64,000 nucleotides of DNA from Paramecium tetraurelia (lineage: Eukaryota), in NCBI GenBank assembly GCA_000165425.1, contig CT867996.1:124001-188000 (forward strand). Reading direction: 5' to 3'. The notes beneath the pieces were generated by a model. The model saw nothing but the letters and a program-made list of their open reading frames with translations, had not been told where the DNA came from and made no database searches. Within the stretch, counting starts at the first letter, position 1. Each line of letters opens with the position of its first letter. Made by a program: the position numbers and the translations under genes. Shown here in pieces: positions 17,739 through 60,866 of the stretch.

Positions 17739-18332
17739 TCAGAGTAATTTAAACAGTATTTATTTATTTTGTATTCTTTTCTTAATCTCGCAAGGCATGA
17801 ACCTCTCGATTTTCTACAATATTTATTCCTTATCTAAATGCTTTATTTTTTTTACACCATTTATTTTTATGTTATTATTTTTAATCCTTACGTAATGGTT
17901 CCCTAATATTTTATGAATTTTTATTATTTTTTTCTCTTCCTCGCAATTCAAAAATTAACCATTAAAACGTAATCGTCGATCTGCTATTTATTTTCTACAC
18001 TCATAAAGAGTTCTATTCATCCACATCCTCTTTTTTGCTCTGTACCTTTGCAAACATTCTTTGCGAATAAAATTTTTATCAATTAATTTTTCTTCTCCTT
18101 GAGATATTACAACTAGGCTGTCTAATTTAGATTCTTAAACAGTTGATTAGGTTTCGTTTGAAATGAGAAAACTATTAAGAACATTCATTTTCTGCATAAG
18201 TAATTACTACTATTGTAACACTAAATTTAATACAGACTATTTCCCTAAGAATTTTATTAACTCGTTTTTCAGCTCCTAACTGATCTATCCTTAATCATCC
18301 ACGAATTGAGGATAGTTGTATAGATATTGCAT
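17739..18332 (-). CDS. CCT-domain (CONSTANS/CO-like/TOC1 motif) protein
   Basis: RKECLQRYRAKKRMWMNRTLYECRKQIADRRLRFNGQF matches the CCT consensus R...L.RY.EK+..R...K.I.Y..RK..AD.R.R.KG.F. Confidence 0.75.
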
Positions 18333-18522
18333 TTGTTTTTCTAATTAATGTATTAGAAAAAACTAGGATTATTCGATCATTTTGAATCCCAAAAACAATG
18401 TTCTCAGAATAAAAATGCAATGGACCCCCTTTACTTTTAATTAAATTATTTTTATACTATCTTATTCTCAATTATATTAGCCATAATGATGAGACCTTCA
18501 TTTTATATATAAAAATATATAT

Positions 18523-19947: not shown

Positions 19948-21146
19948 ATGTCAATGAAGAAATCAAAATTTTCAAGCTATCAAAAAATTTAATCAGAAAA
20001 TAGGTACATCCAATTATGATATCAAAGGTAGTCAGTGTCTAAATTAATCAGAGTTTCAAGCATGACCAATTTATCCAACACCAGTAAAATGCTGATACTA
20101 TGAAATATTAGGCACAGTTGTCAAATTGTCCATTAAAGAATTGCTCGAGAAACAAAAGAAAGGCGAAATCACAAAGCTCTCCCAATAAAAAGAAAATTTC
20201 ATCTCCAAAATAGCTCCAATCAAAATATAGACCTAAAACTCAAAAAATAGTTCCCCCCGTTATAGGATTAAGCTACTCTCAAGTCCTCTAAGCACAAATC
20301 GAACCACCTTATCTAAATCATCCTAAGTTTCCCCTCTAAGACAAAATAGAACTCTAGTACCTAAAGACTTCATTTGCTTATCATAACCCCAAATACAAAT
20401 CAGCTAAATAGAAAAATTAGAGGAATTTGTATCTATCTCCAATAACTCTCCAACAAGAATAGATAACATGGAGGATTATTCGCCTAGTATTAGAACCAAA
20501 AATATTGAAATGGAACAAGAAAAAATATTAAAGGAAGATATTAAGCCTCCTAAGAAAACCAAAAAAGAATTAAAAGGCTGTTTATTAAGAGCCTTGAGAA
20601 AACTCAAAGAAATGAATATAAATACAAAAATGATGCTCCAAAAATAAATCTTCTCAAAGAAACCATATCAAAAACCAAATTCGTAAGAGTTCATCCATGC
20701 TGTCAAATTAAATTAATTAGATAAGGTAAAGTAATACATTGAGAAGAACAAATATATTATTTTTGATTTTGATTACTTCAATATGACAGCTCTACATTGG
20801 TCAAGTAAAAAGGGATTCTATGAAATGACAGAATTCCTTATTAAAAATCATGCGGATGTTGATGCTATTGATATTTTGAATAGAACTCCTCTCTTTTTGG
20901 CAATTCAAGAAAATAATATTCCTATAATAGAAGTAGGGCTATATAATAATTTAATTTTAGTTATTATTGAGAAATAAAGCGTATCCATGGTCAACATCCG
21001 TAACTGATTTAGGAGAAGCTGTTGGAAATAATAGAAGAGTTAGAAAAATATTAACTTAAATTCGTAGAGTAAATTTTATCATTATTTGCTAGGTTGATAT
21101 AATTAATATGTGGGGAGAAAAAAAGTTAAAGGAAGAGTTGTTTTGA
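19948..21146 (+). CDS. Ankyrin-repeat protein with low-complexity N-terminus
   Basis: MTALHWSSKKGF..LIKNHADVDAIDILNRTPLFLAI; short introns; TGA at 21144-21146. Confidence 0.85.
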
Positions 21147-22121
21147 ATTATTAATATTGTATTAAGCATTTTATAATTTCGAATTGAACATAAAGAAATT
21201 GTTTTTTCAGTTGATATTTTTATAACTTTAAATTAAATTAGTGAAACAATATTTTTAACAACCGTTCAAGCCTAAGTAAAATTTTATATTATTCAGATGA
21301 TTAGGAATAAATGCTGAACTTGGTTCATTATTGAATATTCTTGATTTAAATAATATAGTTATATTCTAAATAATTTTATTCTCAGCTAAGATATTTTATT
21401 AACTAATTTATAGAAAACTTTATTGATTTTCTGATCATCATCTAAAATAAGTGGTTAATTAGAGTCAACTCGATTATTAAATAGTGATTTCTATTATCAA
21501 CTTTGACTTTGTAATAAGTTTACATATATAATTATATCTAACTCTAGATAAATACTCTAAATTTACAACTTATATAATCTAAAATAAATAATTATAATTC
21601 TTTAGTCTGAGAAATAATAATTAAAAGATAAATATTGAGTAGTCTATTTTAATTTTATAACATGATTTTAAGTTTTGATGTACTAGTCTTAAATATCATT
21701 TAAATTTAGGGCACACTTTAATGCTTGTTTTCTTTATGAAAAATTTTTTGATTGTCTTTTTCACTTAAGGATTATTACTAATTTCTTTTCTTCAAAATTT
21801 GGAGAGAAATTCTAAGCAGTTCTCATTAATTTAAAACAATTAACGTATTCTAATTATTAAATATATATTTGAATAAAAAGAAAAACTCTTATTTAATGAG
21901 ATTTTAAGTCATTCGATGAAAAAATGGGGAAAATAGTATTTGCCATATCCCCCAGATTTCTCTAAATCTAGTGAATACTTCAAAATTATATTTTATTTTA
22001 GAAAAATTAATTGACTAAATTAATACATTTAATTAAAAAAAAATTGAGTATAAAATATTTTGAAAAATTTACTTAATTATGTGATTCAAAATTGAATAAA
22101 AATATCCAAAAAACTCTTTAA

Positions 22122-25100
22122 TCACGCTAAACATCTATGATAATTCTTAGAGATGATCTCTGTCCAAATATGATTAAGTTAAAATGGCTCTATGCTGTCT
22201 CTAAGTGCTGCTTATGCAAAGGCTTAACTGAATCTATCAATTATTCGTTCTAGCGAAGAAGATAGATTTGGCTGGGAACAAGCAAAAAAATAAATTGAAT
22301 CTCGAAATCTTTTTTCTATATTGCAAAATATATCGACTTCGTCATTTTGTTAGTAATTTATAAACCTAGACGGTTTCCCGTCAGTATAAAACAGTATCAC
22401 GGTCCTATTTATGTAATTAAATAATTACTGTGTAAATTCAGAATGTTAAAGAACTAATTCTCTTGCAGCTGATAATGCAGGACCAAATAATGTAAACCAA
22501 CTTCCTTCATATTATATAAGTTCTATTTATTTATCAATATCTACAGCTTAACAGTTGATGACTATTTTAGCAGTTGCACCGAATAGAATCACACTTACTT
22601 TTGCATTTTTCTTTTACTTTATTTATTCAAATTATTCTGCCATACAAATTTTAACTTACAACCAATGCTAGTGCATAGAGGTGGAATTATCTAAAATAAA
22701 TATATAATGAAATGAATTATTCTATTAATTCATTGAGATATCATGTTTTTATGAGAAGACAATTTCTTACTGAAATTGACTTTATAAATCTTTCGAAATT
22801 AATTCCCCAACTCCTCCATTCCAAATTTACATCATTTTTTATATATTTTCATCAACTAATTTCTGCGATTCGAGTTCTTTAAAGATCCAGTCATTGTGAA
22901 TCTTTTTGACTTCACTCCATGACTTTAACCTATTAGTTTCAAATATTTTAATTTCAGCTTCATCAATTATTTCCTCACAAGTATAAGGTGAAGGATAAGA
23001 ATTTATCAAAACTCTATTCATGCCTACAAATTGATATTCATATTACCTCTCTGCTAATGGCCATTTAAGCATTTATGTTTATGATTATCGATTTTATAAT
23101 CAGGGCTGTCGCATTTTCTATTACACATTGGACAAGATTAATCACATCCTATCATATCATTCTGTAGACTATCCAAAATATTTTAAACATTGAATTTTTC
23201 AATCTATGGTTATACTTTCTATATTTTCAAAGCCTCAATTTCCATTATAAAAGATCCCAAAAATGCATCTACTTTGTAACCTATATGTATTATTTTATTT
23301 ATACTTAAATTTTTCACTCCTGGAATACCAAATCTTTTAATACTTTGATTATCAATAATATCAGAGTTTTAAAAATAGTTTAGATTTTCAGCCTATTCTC
23401 CCAATTTAAAATTAAAAATAGCCTAAATAATTTCCTCAGTTTCTTAATCTAAATTGTTATAACCAAAATAATCTAACTGATTTTAATCTTTATTTTCACT
23501 GCTATTTTTAAATTATTATTATAATTCCAAAGAGTTTTTGAGTATTGCATCTAATATTTCATTGATTGAGCATTCATTCTCAAAAATTGTCATTATTTCA
23601 TCTTTAAACTTCTAAATCTCCAAATATACATATTATTCTATAAATTCTTTTTGCCTATAAACGTATGACATAATTTATTCATCTAAATCTTGTTTCATTG
23701 AATTAATTCTTTCCTGACATAATAATAACTTTTAGTCAAGCATTTAAATTATTTCTTAAGATGTTTTAGATTGTTTCATAAGATATTATTAAGTATTTGG
23801 TTAAATTTTTCTATATTGTTAATTAATTAGGTTCTGATAAATGCATTAAGCCAATAATTTTCCATTTCGTATACATACTTCTTTATGGTTTTACAAAATT
23901 ATATCATCAAAAAACTCTTTCATTTCTTTTAGTTTTAAATCTAATGTTTATTTTTCTTGGTCTTATATTGCCCACTTCTTATAGCAAATAAATCTCCATA
24001 TAAGAAATATCGAATAATAATACAATTTTCTTTCTAAAAGTTAGCTTATTTATAAGCCAAAAAAGGCAAACTATTTATTATACTGATTCAATAAGTCTTT
24101 TACTTTTCTCATTATCCTAGAGATTAATTAAAAATTAATTTAAGTCATATCCTCTTCTTTAGATATTGAAGAAGCAATTGTTGAATCAGTATGTATATTC
24201 TAAGACATTATTTCCTTCTTAATTAATTGGTATATGCCCCAACTAAGTCTATCCCATCCTCCACTTTTTTTCATAATATTAATAAATTCATCAGGAAATT
24301 CTTTTCTAAATGTATGTTCATCCATTAATTTTGTCTCCTTTGAGATTATGAATTCAATAAAGTTATAATACCTAGAACCGGGATCTAACTTATTTTTATA
24401 TTCACATTTCTCTGAAATTATAAAATAATTATTTAGATCTTCTTAAAGTTAATTCGATACTTTTTCACTTTATTCAATAAAATCAGGAAAATACTCCCTA
24501 AAAAATTTCAAATTGTAATTCTGAAACTACAAACATTTCATGTTTAGAGAACTCAATTTGAATGTTTATACAATATTTTTTAGTAATTTGAAAATTTAAG
24601 CTTCAATTAGATAATTGCACTAATTAGGACGAGACTTCAACATATCTTCTAAAGACTGGTATAAATTTTAATCAAAATTGATTTATAATTCCTTAACAAA
24701 ATGTATAAAGTTTAAAATAATTTATTCAAACTAATCCTTTTCTTTAATAAGTAATAATTATTTAGTAAAATGTTCAAATTTGTTTTGTAAATGAGATATA
24801 AATTTAGGTTTCTCTATTATTTACTAAATATTATTTATTTCTATATATTCTTTAGGATTGATTATACAATCTTTGGAGATATTTTCAAATCTTTATTTGA
24901 TTGGATTTGAAAAAATATTTAAATAATCTATAGGACTATCTTTGTTCAAATAAACAAAAGAGTATTTTTCAAATTCTTCTTAAAATAATTAATAGGAAAG
25001 TCTTTCTCTATATATTTCCTCACCATTGTCAGGATTACTTTTATTGATTTTTTAGCTAAAAATATACTTAATTTAATCTTTTTGATCTAAATTATAAATA

Positions 25101-28100
25101 TATGACTTTGAAAATAGACATATGCTTTCAATTAGTTACTCTTAAAATTAATCGTAAATAGATTCTATTTAATCAGATGATTTATGAATGATATCCATCC
25201 AAAATTGCTTAAAATAATTTTCTCTGCTTTCTTTATCAGTTTTGTATCGATTTAATTTCTATTCATCATTCAAAATTTCTTTAAGGGCTTTATTAACTTT
25301 TTCCTCAATTAATTAATACTACAATTGAATCTAATATTTAGAAATTTCCTATTAGATTACCAAAGTGCCTTCAACTAAGTGGCTGGATATTAATTCTTAG
25401 GCATGATCTTTAACTTTCTCTAAAATTTTTTTAGAAACATCATAGGTTTATAAAGACAATTCTGAAAAAATATCCTCTTTGATTTAATTTGTGCTTCCCT
25501 TAAAATTATCTTCAATTGAGATTTTAATATTTTGTAAATTTGTTGTTGACAAATTTTATTATTTTTTTATTTCATATTGTATGTCATATATTAATGAGGA
25601 TACTTATTCTGAAAACTATTTATCTCTTTTCTTTATTATTTCATTCAAAATTTTGTTTAGTCTCTCGTAATCCTTTTACTACTTTAATTCTACAAATTCA
25701 ACAACATCAGGAAATCTAGATATAATCTACCAACATTCTTCGAATTTCTTAGTAAAATGTTCCCAAGTTATAAATTATTACATTTCTTTAATAAAAGTCT
25801 TACCTCTACGAATATATCTTAAAATTAAGTTAATTCCCATTGAATAGGCATCCTTAGAATAAACTTCAATAATTCTTTCTTAAGTCCATTCTTTTGAATG
25901 AGTTGAGCAACTTAAATTATTCCATTTATCTGGAACAGATGCCATTCCTAATATTTCAATATCTTCTTCTCGAAATCCTGAGATTTCATAAACGTCCCTT
26001 TACCATTTTTTTTCTTCTTTTAATTTTTCAACTATGTCTTCAATTTAGTTATGAAGTTTTTTTTTATCAGATGTTTGACTATTTTAATTGAAGCACCAAA
26101 TAAATTGAATATTCGAAGATAATTTTTAATGTTCTACTAAAGTGAATAAGCACATCTCAATAAGGTTGTGAAATTGAGAATTTATTTCACCTTTAACATT
26201 GAATATTATGATATCACTAATTGAAACTATAAACAATGCAAGTCTTTTATCAAATACTTAATCTTATTAATTTGGATTTTATAAACCTTCAGAATCTAAC
26301 AATAATATATAATCATATAAATTATCAAATTATTCCTTATTTGATATCTTGAGCAATTATAAATACATCCCTTTCGTACATCTACCTACACTTGTTAAAA
26401 AATGACAGCCAAACATTTTATTTAATAAAGTTGACTTTCCTGAGCTCTAAGGCCCTAAAATGCTAATTATTAGTATTTTATTTTATTCTTTATGTGTAAT
26501 TAATTTTTAACCTAATTACTTCAAAAATTTAAAATTAATGGTAAGATCATCACCGTTGAGAAACTCAAAGGGTTCTCCTCTCTATAGTAATTGTACTATT
26601 ATGTCGATATAATCTAAGTCAAAATGAGGATATCCATTAATAATTTCTCTCCAAAATAGTTCTATACTAACATTTTATAATTTTTAATTATTTTAAAGTA
26701 TTTTGATTTATTGGTCTGTCTCTTCTTTTTTATTTCCATTTAGTTTAGCATTTTCTTGTACTTTTTTGATTGAGGCATCGTTCTCAATTTATAAAATATT
26801 ATTAAATTTGGCTATTTTATCAACTGTCATTAGATAACCTATGTAATAATTATCTAATTTAAAAAGAAAACTAAATATTGAGAGTAAATTTGAAGTTTAA
26901 ACCGTTAAACCTCTTTATTATGATTCAAATTATAAGATACATTCAATTATTTAATACTATTGCTTTTTAAGTTAGTCTAAATTAATATTAATTTCATCCA
27001 TTTCTTTTAGCTTAGCTTCAATCCCATTTATCAAATTTGTTTTGTTCATCTCATCTTAACACTCAGATAATTGCCTTAAATAATTGATTGATCTTTGTTT
27101 ATCCTATAAATTTTGTTAATTTGATTTTATTTCTTTGTCACATTCAGATCTTTACATATGTAATGCTTCAATTTTCCATTCCAAAAATCTTAAAGGAAAA
27201 GCATTTTCATTGTAAAAGCCTTCTGGATTTGATTTAATTATATTTAATTCAATTTCTAAATTATCTATTAACTCTTGAATTTGTAGTATTTTAAAGGTAT
27301 TAATTTCAAAGTTCGTACACACTTAAAGAAATGACTTTTTTAAATCTTATTCTTTAACAAGTTCATTTTCCTTTCCAATCATCTCTAAAATAGTATTTCT
27401 TATTTTGGCTATTTCTCCTTACTAAGGTTGATTATCCATTTATTATAGGTTTTCAATTTGACAAATTTTAATTTTCGAAGCTTTAATTTAATTAATTTAC
27501 TCCATTTTAATTTCTAATTTTTTAGAATCTCTAATTACAAAACAAATCATAGGCTTACAATCCAATAGAGATAGAATATTATTAACTCTATCAATATTTT
27601 CTTTCAATTCTTATTCAGATCTCATTTGAATTATCCAACATTTAAACAATGGAAGTATTAATTAGAATAACTCATCTTAAAATGAACCATGAGCATCTGC
27701 AATAAAAAAATTTCTGCTTCGGTTAAAAGCAAAGTCAAATGTGCAATCAATTGTATTTTTGTTGATCAACGATGAATCGCAGATCTCAAATTTATCATCT
27801 TTGTAAAATAACTTATTAATTAAGTAAGTTTTCCCAATTTTTTCTTAAATTTAAGTAAGGGAAAAATTTATAATAGTGAAATCTTGTTCCAAAAGATAAT
27901 AAATATTTTCATTCAATCTGAACAAATCTAAATCTTTAGTAGCATTTTAAATTTGTGGGTGTTTATAAATTAGAGGAATTGAATTGTTTTTTGAATGTAA
28001 TTTAATTAGTATTGCTTATAACTCTGAATCAGCATTATTATATAATATTTAAAATAAGGATTTCATATTTAAAGAATCCAAATGGTCGAATTTTCTATCC

Positions 28101-29821
28101 TAATTAATTAAATCTAGTAAATGCTATGAGGGTTCCCCTCTTTTAATAATATTAAAATAAAATGGTATTAGATTTTTAAATTTTTTATGATCTTTTCTAT
28201 CGCTTAACCAGTCATTAATAATTTATTTAGAAATTTCAGGATTTTCTTAGATCAGGGTTAAATTAAATTCATTAAGTTTGATCTATAAACTTTGGGGATA
28301 TTTTTCAATTAGATTAATTTAAGAGATCCATTTTGAAATTGACAATGGATTATTTTAGGAATTCTCATTCATATATCTTAGCATAAATTTTAAATGCAAA
28401 AGGTTTTCCTGCAAAATATTATCACCCTACAGATTGATCTTCTTAAATAATTCATTTTTAATTTCGAATAGGTCGACTTTATGCTAGAAAATCAAGTTTA
28501 ATTCCAAAATCATTTATTCTGTATAAGCAGTTGTAGAAACAAATAAGAAAAACAAAATTTCTTGATTTTTACTACCATATAATTATTCCAACTGATAGAA
28601 CTTTAACTAACCAATGTCATTCCAAATTTGAGATAAGTATTAATGATTATTCAATTGTGTTTGTATACTTTCAAATTTATATTATTAATATTACACTTAC
28701 TTAAACTGTTACTTATATTTAGAATAATTCTCATTAAAGTTGTCATCCTTAAAATTAGAAAAAAAAACAATTTTATGAATCAAATATTTAAAGATAAAAT
28801 CTTTTTATTCCTTTGCTAAACTTTCCAATCCTCTCTCCATACATTTCCTTTTATTAGCTGCTTTCTTTAACTTATACTCATACATATCGTTTAAAAATTT
28901 CTACAATTCAAATTTCTCTGAATGTTTTATCCAAAAGTAAATCACTAATTTGAAATATAAAATATCAACTAAATTACTAAAATTTTCAGTCATATTAAAA
29001 AATCTAATGATCTTAGTTTTATCTTGATTATTATATTCAATATTTGGATAATTTTTAATGTATTCTAATAGTTTTTGGTGATAATCGTCTATTTCAATTG
29101 ATAGAAGATCAAATAAATCCAAATTTTATGTATTTTAACTTAAAATTTGGTCCAGTTCTTCCTTCATCTTATCTTTTTATTGTATCAATTAAAGGTTTTT
29201 AATTACTTGTTGATATGCATCGTTATCTTTTTCCTTAAAATTATCAACATAAAGTTCAAATTCGTATAGTTATAATTCTAAGCATGACCCAACAAATTAA
29301 TGAATTTCATCATTCAAATAAAAAATTTTAAGTAAAAGTTCCAAACTCTTCATATAAGAATATCGGATTGTACTTTTCTATTACTCAATTAAATCAAAAA
29401 TCAGTCCAACATTCTGTCCTAACTTCTCAAGTGTTTTTTTATGATCTTTAATTGTTACTGGTATCTAATTTTTTTAGCAAAATTCGGGGTTTGTGATTCT
29501 TTAAATAATTAAATCAAATTATTATTCTTTTAACGCTTCGTTATATATCTATACTAAGTCTTCTTCAGGTTATTCATGATTGTGATTTGGAGTTGATATA
29601 ATGTTAAAATATGTCAAATTTAAGAAAGATCTTCCTTAGAATTTTTAATGTAAATCATTTACATATTATACTCTTCTATCTTCATCAAATTTTTCAAGTA
29701 GCTCTTTCAACTCTTTTTCAATCTACTCATCATTATCAAATACATTATTCTCTATGTCTTAGATTATTTCATTAAGAGAGTTTTGAATAAATTCAATAGA
29801 ATTTTCACCATCTTAATCCAT
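22122..29821 (-). CDS. Very large inducible GTPase (VLIG/GVIN1/URGCP-like) with C-terminal von Willebrand A domain, about 2500 aa
   Basis: ISILGPQSSGKSTLLNKMFGCHFLTSVGRCTKG..LLDSEGL..FDKRLALF..SDIIIFNVKG (VLIG G domain); CPMCNRKC..H.H.C..GH cluster; vWA IILDNSTSM..T.FGPAL..LFYTDG; the introns I located lie near the 3' end; TGA at 22122-22124. Confidence 0.9.
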
Positions 29822-30609
29822 TAATTAATTAATAGAAAATGAAATTTTATTATTAATTATATTATAAACGATGCACAAACTTAGTTTATTGAATAAATAA
29901 AAATAAATCCTATCTTTTATAATTATTAAATAATATTTTATTAAATTTAGTTATTGTAATGATGCAATACATATGCATTCTTGAAATGGTTTGATTTAAT
30001 GCAATCTTTCTATTATAAATCTATCTCTCTTTAACTAAAAAATGAGTCATATTTTTGACTCTCTTGTAAGCTCAAGATGTGTTTACAGGATTTGAGTTTG
30101 AGTTTGATTGTCATCTCATTTAATTGAAATTGATTTTTGTTCTATATTATTAGTGTGATTAATTTCAATACTTTTAACATGGCCAGAATTACAAAAATGA
30201 ACTTTTTGAATTCTGCTAGGCCATTGATTAGGTTAAGTTTAATTTACTTAGATTTTCCTCCTTAATATATTATTTCATTTTTGTGAATTCCCTTAGATAG
30301 AAAAATCAATTCTAGAATAAATTTATTTGATATCAAAGTTTCTTTAAATCTTCATTTGATCTAAGATATTTTAAACAGTAGGGATTGTAATTTTTCTGTA
30401 TTAATTATTCTATAAGAATTAAATCGATAAGATTAAGTCAGCATTCCATTTATAGTGTATTAATTCTTAATTAATGAAGGCTAATTTATTATTTAATGTC
30501 AATTTTCATCTCTACTTTGAGAATTTGTTAAGTTTAGTCTTATGGAAGACTCTTTATTAGTTAAATTATCTTATCAAATTTAAGAATTGATTATTATTAT
30601 ATTATTAAT

Positions 30610-55137: not shown

Positions 55138-55527
55138 TTTTTAACTATTATTCTTTATTTGATTTATAATATATATAAAAATGAAGTATCGAATATTTTC
55201 TATGATTTCCAGTATAAAGGTTGAATTCTGTGTTATGGTGGAAATCATAAACAATGTATAGTATGGTAAGTGTAATTATGTTGATTATGACTTATTTTAT
55301 TTAAGAATTATAACCAGTGTTTAAGTAAATTATAATAATCTCAATTGAAAATATAATTAATTCACTTATTTTTAATATATTAATTATCAAATATGTTATA
55401 ATATTTATCAACCTTCATTTTTTTATCAAAATGCACTCCTTATTATTTCACTCAATTTTAACAATTTTAATCAAGAATATAATCCATAAATAAAATACAT
55501 AATGAAAAATAGATTATTTATAATTTT

Positions 55528-58500
55528 TCAATCTTATAATCCTCTGTAATGCATTTCTATGTTGGGATAGTCGGTTGCTTCGAATTTCATTCTAAGATTA
55601 TTTGAGAATTAATACTTTTCTTTATTCATTTTCTTTCTAAAATAAGATATCAATGTGTAAATAAGGGCAAATGCGAGGATCAAAATAAAAGTATATTTCA
55701 TGTATCTTTTCCACCTCAATTATTTAATATATTCGTTATTAACAGTGATGGGTTTGTAGAATTTTTCTAGATTAATCATTTCTTAATTTCTTAGTTAGAT
55801 AATAGCTAGGAATATAGATAATAATCTTACAATCAGTGTAGATAGTGAATTATATCATTTGTGCATCAGCGAGTTTAGTTTCATCCAATTCTTAACTTAA
55901 TGAAAAAGTCAGTTGATTTTCTTTAGCTGGATTTTCATATCGCATTTCAAACTAATAAGTTTCAAAGCAATAATTAAATGTTTATGTCGACCCATCCTCA
56001 ATAAATTGATAAACCAACACATATGCAACCTATAATAAATTGAAGTTGGGATTCGACTTGACTTACAATTTGTAACCAGTGACTGTCAGATAATATTTAT
56101 CATCCCTCCTTTCTAATTCCCAATTGAGATTTCCATCATTTCCAGGTTGAAGATCATTGAGTGGAATATATGAATCCTGCTTTATAAGTTGAGCAGTGAT
56201 AGTAAATGGAGTTGATGAATCAGATATATAATTGTTTGTACTGGCAACTAGATAGTAATAACCCGACTTTTTGACTTCAATAACTTCCACCAAATGATCA
56301 GTCACTTAATATTGCTTAGAGTATTATCCATTTTTTAAAAGATCGATGTCAGTAGACCCGAATAAGTTCAATGTAGTTCCGCATTGCTGCACCTATAACA
56401 ACAATTGCCCTTCGGATGGACAAAAGTATTCCCAATATTTGGGTTACTATTTTAGAATGCTGACACTTTTTTGACTGGGAACCAATATGTTGAGATAGCT
56501 ATTGCTAAAGATCAAATTAAAGTCGATGCTTAACTAATCATTTTTATTAAAGATTTCGATCTCGTAATCTCCTGCGCGATCCTAAAATTCTGCATAATAA
56601 TATTGAGAAATTTAGGCTTCCTTGTCTGGGAAGAGTTGATGGGATACTTGATTCTCATTGGTATATTTGACAAATATTTTGGGGACTTCTTTCTTGTATT
56701 TGTTATACTCATCTTTTTGATAGGTGTTGAAAAGCATGGTGATGAAAATTGAAAAGGTATTTTCATTCCCTTTCTATACACTATTGTAAATGAATTTCTC
56801 TGATTGGTGAGGGTGTAATAATATAGTATAGACTTCACCGACATTAATAAACTTAGTTCCTTTTATATCTCTGCATTAGATCTTATAAGTAGCACTTTTA
56901 TCAAAAGATTTAATAGTGATATTAAATTGATTTGAAAATTCAGCCGAGACTTTCATTAATTCCTCAATGAAGCCTTAAGCAGATGTTTCTTTGCTCACTC
57001 TTTTTCTTATTGGATCTTTTGAAGGATCACTGCTATATTGAACTTCAACTTTACCTTCTAACACTTCTACTTTCAGAACAGAGTCATAAGGACTGTAATA
57101 ACTGTATGATTAAAAATCCTCTGGATCAAGTTAATTTATCATTATGACATCTTTGGCAAGATAAACTTTGGATGATTTAACTTGAATAGCTAATGTGATA
57201 TCCGAATCTTATTCTGATCTAACAGCAATTAGATACTTGTGTCTATCATTAGGTGTAAACTTCATTTATTTTTTAAATCCCTTCCCCGAATTGTTAAATT
57301 GGAATAACTCCAATTATTTAATGAAGGAATCAGATTCCTTAGAGTCATCAGCTATTTCATCTACGAAATATTCAGCAGTTCCACTCTAAAGTATGAATAA
57401 TATTTAGAAATTCTCCACTATGTATTATTGGTATTTAAAATAGGCTACTTCTCCTGATTTCAGCACTATGTTGTGTGGGATGCCTTATTAAATTTGATAG
57501 TAATGGAGTTTTCCAGTTTGATATACTATACTGTAAGAACAAGTGGAATACCCAATAACACCAATTATATAGAGTCCAGCCATCTTAGGATGTTTTGGAT
57601 TGCCACTTTCGATGACTAATTAGTCTCCCAAATAATCGATGGAGGCCCAATCATAGTTCTCAGCATCTGGATAGTCATCCTTACTGACAACGATATTGAC
57701 ATCGCAAGATGACATAGGAGTGAGGACAATCATAAGGTTGGTATCATTATCATAGACATAGGCTTTATAGTATTTAATGATGGATCTGTCAATGGATCCA
57801 TAATAGGCTATTTGTTCATACAATCCAACGTATCCAGATGAATATTGAATGGAGTATGTCTAATCTTGAGTTATGTAGTATTCTATATCATCAACTTTCT
57901 TTATTGTTATGGCCAAAACACATTAATATTAACAAAATTGCAAGAATCCTTAAGAGAGAGTCACTTAACTATGAGGTATTCCAACAATGGTTTTTGAAAC
58001 TGAAACTATGTTTTTGGATTCTGAATCTGTGGGATACTCATAGACTCCCTTGTTAGGATACTAGGTGGTATCAAATACGGACACTAAGATTTACAATGGT
58101 TATGGTTATCCAAAATTGACAACATTCAAAACGACATCATTTTCCGGCTAATAAAATAAATAATAGTGGTGGTATGAGGCAGGCAAGGTCTAAGTTACAG
58201 GTTCATCTAGAGTCAGCTGAATTTAAGAGTTATCTTTGGAAATGAGTAGTGAGTAGAAGGTGTCTACAGTGCTTGTGACTTAGACTTAAACTTAGCAGTA
58301 AAAGATTTCGGTGATGGAACTCTTACATTTATCCAGAGGCATTTTGGATGCACTCAATATCATTGATCCTGTTATTAATTAGTGTTAATTGCTGTCAACA
58401 AATGCAGTGACAATTAATTCACTATCTTTATGAGAATGAGCTCTTTTGGTAAGCTGAACATCTTCGTTTTTAAAAAAGGTATAGTAGAAATACTGATAGT

Positions 58501-60866
58501 CACCTGCTTCGATCCAAGTATAAAAGTTCTCATTCAGAACCAGCATGTTGTTCTTCCACCCTATTCTATAGATGATTCTGAATGAAACCTAACTAAAAGG
58601 TCCTGTGGGTTCCACTCTCAAATAAATAACTTCTGGGTATTCATCTTCATTGAATTAGATTTGAATCTCCTCAGCACTTTGCCATCTTGATTCATTCAAT
58701 TTGGTTGATGGATGATCAAAACCATAAAGCGATAATTGACCAGTCTCATGCAAGATTTCCACTTTCACATTGTCATGCAATGATTACTTGCTTTGATCAG
58801 TATTCAAGTAGTTAGTGAGATCAATCTTATACAAGCCCACCTCTCCACTAAAAAGAGTAAAATCTTAAGGACTTCCCTCGTACAGTTGAATGTATTGCCA
58901 AGCGAACTTACCTTTTGCACGGAAATCATCACCTGTCCTAATCACTACAACTGTGATTGTATACAGTCCTGCTGTTTCTCCAAATACCGAAATGAAATAT
59001 GTTCCCTCTCGAATTTCTTAGTTCTAGTAACGGATCATATAATTGCTTCCTTGCATCTCGAAGTCTTCCTTATTTGGTCTCTGACTTGTCGTTGATGAAT
59101 AGATCTAAAAGATTCCTTGGATTGGTGTTAAGATGATTGAGATTCTGCTGATATCCTGAGCATTGCCAATGTAAAATTTGAAATAGTTCAAGCTTTGTCT
59201 CTCCACCATCGATTTATGTGGTGTGTTTTCCTTTAATTGAATATGTGAGGATTGAGTAGACACCAAGACTGAATAGGAGCATCGATTGTATAATTGAGTG
59301 TGGGTGTTGCTAGGGTATATGGCTAAGACATAGGTGCAACTGTAGAAATCCCCGAAGGACTTACAAACTTCGGGGTCATAATTGAATACCAGTATTTAAT
59401 TATTTTTTGTTTAGGTAGTGTAAATAAACAAATCCATTGGACTCTGAGACTATCTTTCTTCTAAATGGTTCAGATCATCTTGGATTATTTTGCATTCATC
59501 CTCATAACATCTCTTAAGCACCAAAGCACACTCTTAATCATAATTGGTCAACTCCACTGTGACTGCTCTGGTTTTCGATCCTGACAACACAAACCAATAA
59601 TTGATCATCTCATTATTCTCAATATTCCCCTCATATGGAACATTAATGTTGATGTATTGGTATTCAAAATCTTGGATTCCAGTTTCCAATTCATAAGTGC
59701 ACATCTCATTTCCAAATACTGCGATATACAAGTACTTCTCATTTCCACTCTAGAATTTGAATTAAGCCTTCTCAATTATTAGAACCTGCTGAGTCGTTCG
59801 TTCAAAATGATATTGATATTATTCCAACAGCACTGGCTAATAATCAGGATTCGCATATAGGGTAGCATGTCCAATAAATGGAGTTAATTTAATAAACTAA
59901 ACATAATCTCACTATGATTTACCCATTTTATTTTCCTGTCAATCTCATTCATATCATTATAGCTGTTGTCTTCGATCTTCACTTTGAAAATCCTAGCAGT
60001 GCCAGCTTCCACTATCCCATTGTAAATCTCTTGGAATTTCAATTCTCTTAAGATTCCAGAAGTCTGAGTCTTGATCTAAAAGATAGCCCCAGCCTAACCA
60101 GATATCACAAGAGTCAACTTGGATAAGTGTGGCAATTCTTAAAGCGATAGAGACATTAATTTAGATCCACTCCATGAGTCCTTGGCTACATACTAATGCT
60201 CACTTGATGTAGGTATTGTGGTTCCTACATTCAAATAAACTTGGAAGGCAGCTTCAAATTCATATATGTTTAATGCCTTCACTTCTATTTCTAGTTCCAC
60301 TTCCGATTTGCTGTATTCACCAATATCGATCTTTAAAATCTCACTTTGTTGAGTGTCAGACAATTTAAATTATATAAAATCATCTAATTAATATAAATAT
60401 CCCTTATTTACTTCTTTGGAGCGTGTATTCTTAATCGTAATCAACCCGCAAATCGTATCTACAATTGCCAGTACAAATTACTGAGATATAGAATGGATCG
60501 TCGATTATCAATTTAGATTTGTCAATAATACACAAATCTTATTGAATATAGAATTATTTTACCATTCCCTCTTGACGTGCATGAAGCAATTTCCCCTTCC
60601 TTTTCATTGCTGGCATATTTATTCTCTCTCGATATAAAAATGTTTGGATCTCCTCCTGGATTTATTGCCTTCACCATTATCACGATGTCAGAATCAATCT
60701 TTATTTCCTCCAAAATTAACTCATAAAAGTCTCCATTCTAATTGAGCCACTTTGATTAAGTGCTTATCAATCAATTATTTCTTTACCCTTCTACTCTATG
60801 ACCAATCGTTAATCTCTTGATTTCTTAGGTGAAAACTACATTTAAGAAAATCAATAATGAGAACAT
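55528..60866 (-). CDS. Large type-I membrane protein with signal peptide and repeated beta-sandwich (PPC-like) modules
   Basis: MFSLLIFLNVVFT signal; recurrent GGDPNIFIS / CDVNIVVS..YP..YDW.S..G.YIIGV.G..C.YSI-type modules; single TM near 55650-55700; cytosolic tail ending HYRGLQD*. Confidence 0.85.

Follow-up and report, generated by a model that had tools for sequence, protein, structure and literature searches.

Results

A giant GTPase gene on the minus strand

We analyzed a stretch of 64,000 nucleotides from Paramecium tetraurelia (contig CT867996.1 of assembly GCA_000165425.1, positions 124,001 to 188,000 of the forward strand; referred to below as the window) with respect to a giant gene on its minus strand, which codes for a VLIG-type GTPase with a cysteine- and histidine-rich (Cys/His) module and a terminal domain of the von Willebrand factor A kind (vWA domain). 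An original prediction, made from the DNA letters, had described a single gene of about 7.7 kb with few introns at 22122-29821, and both statements agree with our data. Translation of the minus strand of 22122-30046 with the ciliate code (NCBI table 6) yields a 2342-codon open frame (23018-30046), followed in another phase by a 325-codon frame (22122-23099). These frames are the largest in the 64-kb window, as had been predicted, the runner-up comprising 1486 codons; no second copy of the gene is present in the window. The coding region starts with the ATG at 29821, upstream of which there is no in-frame ATG, and ends with a TGA at 22124-22122, so that the predicted limits are matched by start and stop codon. 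Its five joined exons (29821-28701, 28667-23305, 23280-23047, 23023-22429, and 22404-22125) correspond letter for letter to the public protein P0003 (accessions in Table 1), which our protein search recovered with 100% identity as 'unnamed protein product (macronuclear) [Paramecium tetraurelia]' and which carries the UniRef name 'VLIG-type G domain-containing protein'.

Four tiny introns (33, 24, 23, and 24 nucleotides) are annotated in the gene, one of which breaks the frame. This is intron 3, GTAATATGAATATCAATTTGTAG (23046-23024), a 23-nucleotide intron of the Paramecium type and the sole frame-shifting one of the four; its removal connects the exon of the Cys/His module with those of the vWA domain, fusing ...LNGHQQR to GMNRVLINS... 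in frame. The vWA exons are part of the same gene as the GTPase: the frame restored by the 23-nucleotide intron, the sense RNA reads over the vWA exons, and the layout of the orthologues P0004 and P0005 all agree on this point and essentially exclude a separate vWA transcript, the finding that would have spoken against the original prediction. For the annotated intron 1, the gene model can probably be corrected. A contig of the presumed RNA run X3 (28640-29841) crosses this segment without a gap, and the Paramecium octaurelia orthologue (P0004) possesses the residues QIQYQQYKFE, which are homologous to the translation of the annotated intron. Because the segment is retained in the X3 contig and has homologous residues in the orthologue, it is probably coding sequence that was mis-called as an intron; the protein would then comprise 2542 residues.

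Transcription of the gene was assessed with three raw oligo-dT RNA runs carrying the same species label, inspected over 21500-30500, and with the contigs of a fourth run (X3). The three runs contributed 75, 55, and 45 reads, all with the first mate on the plus strand, which corresponds to minus-strand RNA under the usual stranded-library design. Read depth amounted to 2-3x over 22102-23305, the part that contains the vWA and Cys/His exons, and was sparse farther upstream, while none of the three runs placed a single read in 21500-22101. At this depth of 2-3x, no splice joints rose above the reporting threshold in the raw reads. X3 contigs cover 22644-29841 in pieces, and since one of them lacks exactly 24 nucleotides at intron 2 and an alignment ends at the donor of the 23-nucleotide intron, X3 behaves as spliced RNA. 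The gene is real, intact, and transcribed.

Two large GTPase domains connected by a helical linker

All motifs quoted in the original prediction were recovered by translation at the places where it had put them (Table 1), and the profile searches that it had proposed, run on the code 6 translation, returned both the VLIG-type G and the VWA family above their curated cut-offs. The canonical large GTPase (LG) domain of the protein, LG2, scored 122.4 bits with URGCP_GTPase (PF25683; cut-off 55; E 2.5e-35) over residues 1005-1258, along with weaker overlapping Pfam matches to RHD3_GTPase (47.7 bits; profile positions 1-90 of 245), MMR_HSR1, and Dynamin_N. To gauge conservation, here and for the other domains, we used an alignment of 35 family members. 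Its 35 rows are invariant in the G1 motif (GPQSSGKS), the switch I threonine of GRCTKG, and the G3 motif (D-S/T-E-G), with G1112, K1118, S1119, T1138, D1165, and G1168 kept in each of them; N1234 and Q1235 are invariant as well. No stretch could be confidently identified as the G4 motif in this alignment. The stretch FDKRLALF that follows G3 is one that we take to be shared with Sey1. Judged by these matches, LG2 is a VLIG/URGCP-type G domain, and the complete VLIG-type G domain of the original prediction thus stands, although a second GTPase domain, located upstream of it, had been overlooked.

This second domain, LG1, became apparent from its predicted structure. The model of residues 479-882, computed with the 35-row alignment, reached a predicted local distance difference test (pLDDT) value of 88.2 and a predicted template modelling (pTM) score of 0.87. 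Because a Foldseek search with this model ranked the G domain of GBP2 first (E 1.5e-6), followed by SMG9, RNF112, GBP5, GBP1, atlastin-1, and Sey1p, we conclude that a second large GTPase domain lies upstream of LG2. LG1 retains a P-loop Gly-Lys-Thr and a D-x-H-G motif: all 35 rows keep G652-K653-T/S654, D698, and R753, and 30 of the 35 also have H700 and G701. At the level of sequence, the full protein gave no match to Pfam GBP (PF02263) at E 0.01 or better, and phmmer returned weak matches only, to GBP2, GBP1, and GBP5 (E 0.0034-0.069). LG1, the helical linker, and LG2 follow each other in the same order as the two large GTPase domains in the AlphaFold3 model of human GVIN1.

The region in front of LG1 has no relatives beyond close Paramecium kin; a search with the N-terminal 474 residues against 1.84 billion representatives gave four matches, namely its own cluster and three short proteins. 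Along the whole protein we found no hydrophobic segment fit to span a membrane, since the best 19-residue Kyte-Doolittle mean was 1.68 and lay inside the vWA and G cores. With no hydrophobic anchor found, a membrane-remodelling GTPase, as originally predicted, is not supported, and we predict that the protein is a soluble giant GTPase.

The Cys/His module and the vWA domain

The Cys/His cluster of the protein comprises the putative ligands C2207, C2211, C2214, C2218, H2230, C2232, H2236, and C2255, which are kept in 22-26 of the 25-27 occupied rows of the 35-row alignment. In a separate 43-row alignment, C62, C66, C69, C73, G90, H91, and C110 (numbering of the typed fragment) were invariant, and H85, C87, P67, and D74 were present in at least 90% of the rows. 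We followed the module through the relatives of the protein, by which we mean the best 120 of 482 matches of a search with the G region (proteins of 1241-3952 residues). The strict pattern CPxC...HxHxC occurs in 30 of these 120 proteins, BLASTP with residues 2151-2330 finds 64, and our own hidden Markov model (HMM) of the module finds 91, among them the fish proteins P0083 (4.2e-6), P0098, and P0079 and the GVIN1 of Amia, P0076 (0.0036); E-values of our own HMM searches refer to the set of 120 proteins. The fish GVIN1-like proteins keep GCxxQCPFCxxxC..H..H, so that the predicted likeness to a Cys cluster of GVIN1 proved to be one of homology. In the Atlas, the module of the paralogue P0026 led to clusters of GVIN1_C (PF26772) at 0.85-0.86, which we treat as a lead only. 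The original prediction had viewed the cluster as a fusion partner of the GTPase; its distribution among the relatives instead identifies it as the VLIG family's own C-terminal module, with a homologous counterpart at the C terminus of animal GVIN1-like proteins, and not as a fused extra.

Eight ligands would suffice for two zinc ions, and the module is accordingly named here as a putative zinc module. Sequence comparison of the module with solved structures remained at chance level (best E 0.31), and none of the 60 profile matches to solved structures listed out of 93 fell in the region of the module. Among shorter proteins, the module was matched twice, in a 39-residue fragment and in P0123, and at word-based sensitivity no free-standing zinc-vWA protein was found. 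The C-x-NGH part may resemble the RZ finger of RNF213/ZNFX1, a likeness that we do not claim.

The C-terminal tail is recognized as a vWA domain by Pfam (VWA, 36.4 bits against a cut-off of 23.8; VWA_2, 32.3 against 27) and also conforms to the alpha/beta vWA fold; the terminal vWA domain with a metal ion-dependent adhesion site (MIDAS) of the original prediction was thereby borne out. The MIDAS residue set is complete and predicts metal binding. Among the rows of the alignment that possess a residue at the position, D2351 is kept in 20 of 23, S2353 in 18 of 23, S2355 in 21 of 23, T2417 in 16 of 21, and D2446 in 18 of 20. Matches to the fold include the intracellular proteins TFIIH p44, Rpn10, Ku, Sec24, and INTS14. 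The fusion to a vWA domain is special neither to this gene nor to ciliates: precomputed Pfam assignments give a vWA family to 52 among the best 120 relatives (25 Paramecium proteins, 26 other proteins of the same clade B described below, and one clade-A protein, P0090). Our own Paramecium-weighted vWA HMM detected the domain in 29 of the 34 Paramecium proteins, and the five proteins that it missed are short models.

A clade with vWA domains as sister to the animal GVIN1 group

To place the protein within its family, we calculated a quick maximum-likelihood tree of the G domains of the 120 relatives (LG+G4 substitution model, Shimodaira-Hasegawa-like approximate likelihood ratio test [SH-aLRT], midpoint root, no outgroup). 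It consists of two clades with an SH-aLRT support of 99 each. Clade A (26 rows) holds fish GVIN1-like proteins, molluscs, a crustacean, the sponge Dysidea, and a glomeromycete fungus, and clade B (94 rows) holds 34 Paramecium proteins, Amoebophrya, rotifers, and a group of 45 rows that includes the sponge Oopsacas. The 34 listed Paramecium proteins form one clade (support 100), beside two further proteins and Amoebophrya. Two domains separate the clades further. The URGCP domain (PF25496) is found in clade A proteins (3.5e-104 in fish P0079) and gave no match at E 0.01 or better in P0003, whereas our own LG1 HMM detected 88 of 94 clade-B and 0 of 26 clade-A proteins. As judged from tree and domains, a separate clade made up of Paramecium, Amoebophrya, rotifers, and the sponge-containing group usually combines the GTPase with a vWA domain. 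The assignment to the GVIN1/VLIG type is therefore right in that the protein is a VLIG/URGCP-type GTPase, but the tree places it in a clade that is a deep sister to the animal GVIN1 group, without the URGCP domain, and not within the vertebrate GVIN1/URGCP clade proper.

The family is multi-copy, in line with the original prediction, whose proposed count of paralogues we drew from the same 120 proteins. P. tetraurelia possesses at least five family genes (six gene ids, with one gene split into two adjacent models), and several Paramecium lineages in the tree predate the split of the aurelia species. The split gene is represented by P0032 (GSPATT00004109001) and P0123 (GSPATT00004110001), which are adjacent on a contig of 703,586 bp outside the window; with the G domains in the former and the Cys/His and vWA parts in the latter, they resemble two halves of one member whose annotation was divided. 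The gene studied here pairs with that of P. octaurelia (P0004, support 99) and then with that of Paramecium sonneborni (96). Neither an orthologue from Paramecium primaurelia or Paramecium pentaurelia nor a close P. tetraurelia duplicate of the gene was found among the best 120 matches.

The gene diverges faster than one syntenic neighbour. Its product is 76% identical (1946/2547) to the P. octaurelia orthologue, compared with 91% (1581/1730) for that neighbour, the gene at 55454-59908 (minus strand; GSPATT00029224001), which codes for a 1728-residue 'transmembrane protein' without a Pfam family on record. The P. octaurelia orthologues of both genes are located on contigs of the same size (394,036 bp), which suggests conserved synteny. 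Along the GTPase, conservation is highest in the G core (93% identity to P. octaurelia and 80% to P. sonneborni); outside of it, identity to P. octaurelia ranges from 63 to 87%, and identity to P. sonneborni drops to 29-37% at the N terminus and in parts of the middle region. The tips of the tree differ in length, 0.027 for P. tetraurelia and 0.21 for the P. octaurelia orthologue, which could reflect faster change in P. octaurelia or errors in its gene model.

Several relatives carry additional domains. P0090 combines the GTPase with a stonustoxin-type MACPF/SNTX pore-forming module as well as thioredoxin-like and fn3 domains, and precomputed Pfam assignments list a Death domain in P0117 (Mytilus) and ubiquitin in P0062 and P0096. 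MORN repeats occur in P0020 from P. primaurelia.

Table 1. Positions of the gene, its introns, domains, and motifs in the window (relatives are the 120 proteins of the G-region search)
Feature	Position	Strand	Remarks
Whole gene	22122..29821	(-)	ATG 29821, TGA 22124-22122; GSPATT00029209001 / CAK58173 / UniProt A0BI06 (P0003), 2531 residues
N-terminal region, residues 1-478	28355..29821	(-)	no Pfam family; found in 18/120 relatives by BLASTP
LG1, helical lead-in and divergent GBP/atlastin-type large GTPase domain, residues 479-882	27143..28354	(-)	P-loop EKIGKT 27844-27806; IADAHG 27703-27686
Helical linker LG1-LG2, residues 883-1004	26777..27142	(-)	helices at end of LG1 model; BLASTP match in 25/120 relatives
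LG2, canonical VLIG/URGCP-type G domain, residues 1005-1258	26015..26776	(-)	PF25683, E 2.5e-35
GPQSSGKST (G1)	26455-26429	(-)	translation
VGRCTKG (switch I)	26389-26369	(-)	translation
DSEGL (G3)	26296-26282	(-)	translation
FDKRLALF	26254-26231	(-)	translation
Middle or 'stalk' region, residues 1330-2190, about 860 residues	23195..25801	(-)	no family match (Pfam, BLASTP)
Cys/His module, residues 2200-2320	22782..23167	(-)	eight conserved ligands; alignment, own HMM
GCDQSCPMCNRKCD	23149-23108	(-)	translation, Cys/His cluster
HKHKCLNGHQ	23083-23054	(-)	translation, Cys/His cluster
vWA domain, residues 2341-2531	22125..22721	(-)	full MIDAS set D2351, S2353, S2355, T2417, D2446
LDNSTSM (MIDAS)	22694-22674	(-)	translation
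GSWFTLFGP (MIDAS T)	22505-22479	(-)	translation
FYTDGK (MIDAS D)	22391-22374	(-)	translation
Intron 1 as annotated	28668..28700	(-)	33 nucleotides, in frame, without stop, 3' end AAG not TAG; probably coding
Intron 2	23281..23304	(-)	24 nucleotides, GTA..TAG; exactly 24 nucleotides absent from an X3 contig; segment absent from orthologues
Intron 3	23024..23046	(-)	23 nucleotides, GTA..TAG; X3 contig alignment ends at 23046 (donor)
Intron 4, inside vWA domain	22405..22428	(-)	24 nucleotides, GTA..TAG; 8 residues absent from orthologues and paralogues

Surroundings of the gene

The long non-coding flanks of the original prediction hold in part. A convergent ankyrin-repeat frame ends at 21004, about 1.1 kb from the gene, the next long frame on the other side lies at 30478, about 0.65 kb away, and the interval 21500-22101 is free of RNA reads. 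The ankyrin repeats of the convergent frame (20096-21004, plus strand), which runs toward the gene's 3' end, match Ank_2 (E 3.7e-10), and a frame farther on, at 17742-18467 on the minus strand, contains a CCT motif (E 8.8e-11); neither has an evident link to the GTPase.

Discussion

Comparison with known giant and membrane-associated GTPases

Apart from the GVIN1 coat paper and many expression lists, our literature searches, with thin coverage of subscription journals, found nothing on protist GTPases of the VLIG type or on a GTPase-vWA layout, the gene ids of the family were not found in the main texts of the literature searched, and an article on conflict systems (PMC3417536) contains nothing on VLIG-type GTPases. 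The closest point of reference is human GVIN1, for which a preprint describes the order N-terminal domain, LG, helical linker, second LG, and C-terminal domain (bioRxiv 10.1101/2025.03.24.645074). According to the same preprint, GVIN1 coats Burkholderia thailandensis, which was shown only recently, and the only characterised member of the VLIG family acts in immunity (bioRxiv 10.1101/2025.03.24.645074). The Paramecium protein resembles human GVIN1 as a giant soluble protein with a PF25683 G domain and two LG domains connected by a helical linker, and its C-terminal Cys/His module is homologous to that of the fish GVIN1-like proteins. It differs in its position in the sister clade, in the lack of the URGCP domain, in its clade-B type of LG1, and in ending with a vWA domain, which is absent from the fish GVIN1-like protein P0079. 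To our knowledge, ciliates have no interferon system.

Compared with GBP1, GBP2, and GBP5, the Paramecium protein lacks a Pfam GBP match, is four times longer, and possesses additional zinc-type and vWA modules. Its C terminus reads ...HRCLA; with the cysteine third from the end, it does not form a CaaX box. A zinc finger and a vWA domain are also combined in archaeal ArnB (PDB 8s05) and in the Sec23/24 trunk, but the Paramecium module differs from these in its length of about 120 residues, its eight ligands, and the lack of a sequence match to a solved structure.

Proposed function and alternatives

With moderate confidence we favour the explanation that the gene codes for a soluble giant VLIG-family GTPase that serves as a GTP-driven scaffold, with the zinc module and the vWA domain as adaptor, and that has a role in cell-autonomous conflict. 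By analogy with the GBPs and human GVIN1, the protein would bind GTP at its LG domains and thereby assemble with itself into a coat or scaffold of oligomers. At the C-terminal end, the zinc module and vWA domain might act as an adaptor, as vWA biology suggests, in which the MIDAS metal would hold a protein ligand, present on a target or a cofactor, by an acidic residue. The conflict could be with intracellular bacteria, symbionts, or other invaders. We propose this role because of the homology to GVIN1, the lineage-specific expansion of the family, its patchy orthologues, a divergence that is faster beyond the G core, and the occurrence of pore-forming, death, or ubiquitin domains fused to relatives; the defence role is a best guess by analogy and is offered as a hypothesis.

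Several observations weigh against this explanation. Position 1238 of LG2 (window about 26075-26077) is a glutamine here, while 23 of 35 relatives have an aspartate and 6 a glutamine, and the nucleotide preference of LG2 could differ if this is the position that determines base specificity. The similarity of LG1 to LG2 is confined to the P-loop helix (hhalign, 13 columns with a probability of 28%; BLASTP best E 0.42), and because the profile likeness ends there, GTP binding by LG1 is putative. The solved structure closest to LG2 by sequence is that of a housekeeping GTPase, Sey1 (profile E 2.6e-15). Expression in the three RNA runs, whose conditions are not on record, is very low (roughly 0.3-0.5 reads per kb and per million reads), and the rate comparison with P. 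octaurelia involves one neighbouring gene only. Finally, none of the six P. tetraurelia family gene ids appears in tables S1 and S2 of a study on Caedibacter (PMC5814942). Since these tables hold 270 rows, restricted to Gene Ontology (GO)-enriched genes out of 1037 differentially expressed ones, this absence is weak evidence. Table S2 of that study does contain ordinary GBP-like genes, which lie outside the GTPase-vWA family. On a separate point, the description of LG1 and LG2 as a sequence-proven duplication was considered and dropped, as neither the BLASTP nor the hhalign comparison supports it.

A doubtful alternative, which we keep as a tentative one, is that the protein acts as a scaffold under GTP control in some non-immune process specific to ciliates, for instance in sexual or developmental stages, the cortex, or secretory organelles. 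The very low read depth in the three polyA RNA runs would then reflect stage-specific use at low vegetative expression, the N-terminal 474 residues are lineage-specific, and the intracellular proteins matched by the vWA fold serve general complex assembly. The layout, however, is shared with Amoebophrya, rotifers, and the sponge-containing clade and hence not confined to ciliates; some relatives bear fused pore-forming and death domains, and the one VLIG-family member that has been characterised acts in immunity.

We consider it improbable that the protein is a housekeeping GTPase of the atlastin/Sey1/RHD3 type that shapes or fuses endomembranes with its vWA tail as a tether. The Sey1 match speaks for such a role, and these proteins are the nearest solved sequence relatives of LG2; no VLIG structure is among the PDB matches, however, and Sey1 is merely the nearest relative that has been solved. 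The RHD3 match covers 90 of 245 profile positions, as opposed to the 122 bits of URGCP_GTPase over 254 residues, and the Paramecium protein differs from Sey1p, RHD3, and the atlastins in lacking the transmembrane hairpin, consistent with the hydrophobicity scan, and in belonging to a multi-copy, fast-evolving family with patchy orthologues. That the gene is a decaying or non-functional paralogue, or that the vWA exons form a separate gene, is largely refuted: the lack of a close P. tetraurelia duplicate, the low expression, and the glutamine at position 1238 would fit decay, but the frame of 7.6 kb is unbroken and retains every G, Cys/His, and MIDAS residue, the tree tip is short, the orthologues P0004 and P0005 share the full layout, and the 23-nucleotide intron restores the frame exactly to vWA exons that are covered by sense RNA reads.

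Starting from the conflict role that we favour, a bolder proposal can be formulated, which we regard as rather unlikely. The GTPase-vWA giants would be an old, interferon-independent arm of cell-autonomous immunity in alveolates, rotifers, and sponges, in which two GBP-like GTPase domains build a GTP-driven coat and the zinc module together with the MIDAS-vWA domain takes hold of invaders directly or brings in an effector. As a derived form, vertebrate GVIN1 would have lost the vWA domain and would depend on interferon-induced cofactors, and the 5-10 diverging paralogues of each Paramecium species would be specialised for distinct endosymbionts or bacteria ingested by the cell.

Implications

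The gene itself is already public and carries automatic domain labels in the databases; new are the tandem GTPase domains, the family-wide Cys/His module, the vWA-bearing sister clade of GVIN1, and the correction of intron 1. We know of nothing on how giant GTPases recognize their targets. A free-living and genetically tractable ciliate possesses a sister form in which the GVIN1 core is combined with an obvious candidate ligand-binding domain, a vWA domain whose MIDAS is intact. Should Holospora, Caedibacter, or food bacteria be targets of the Paramecium proteins, these proteins would offer an experimental system for the ancestral mechanism, amenable to RNA interference by feeding and to tagging with green fluorescent protein. 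If true, this would date a family of immune GTPases to before animals.

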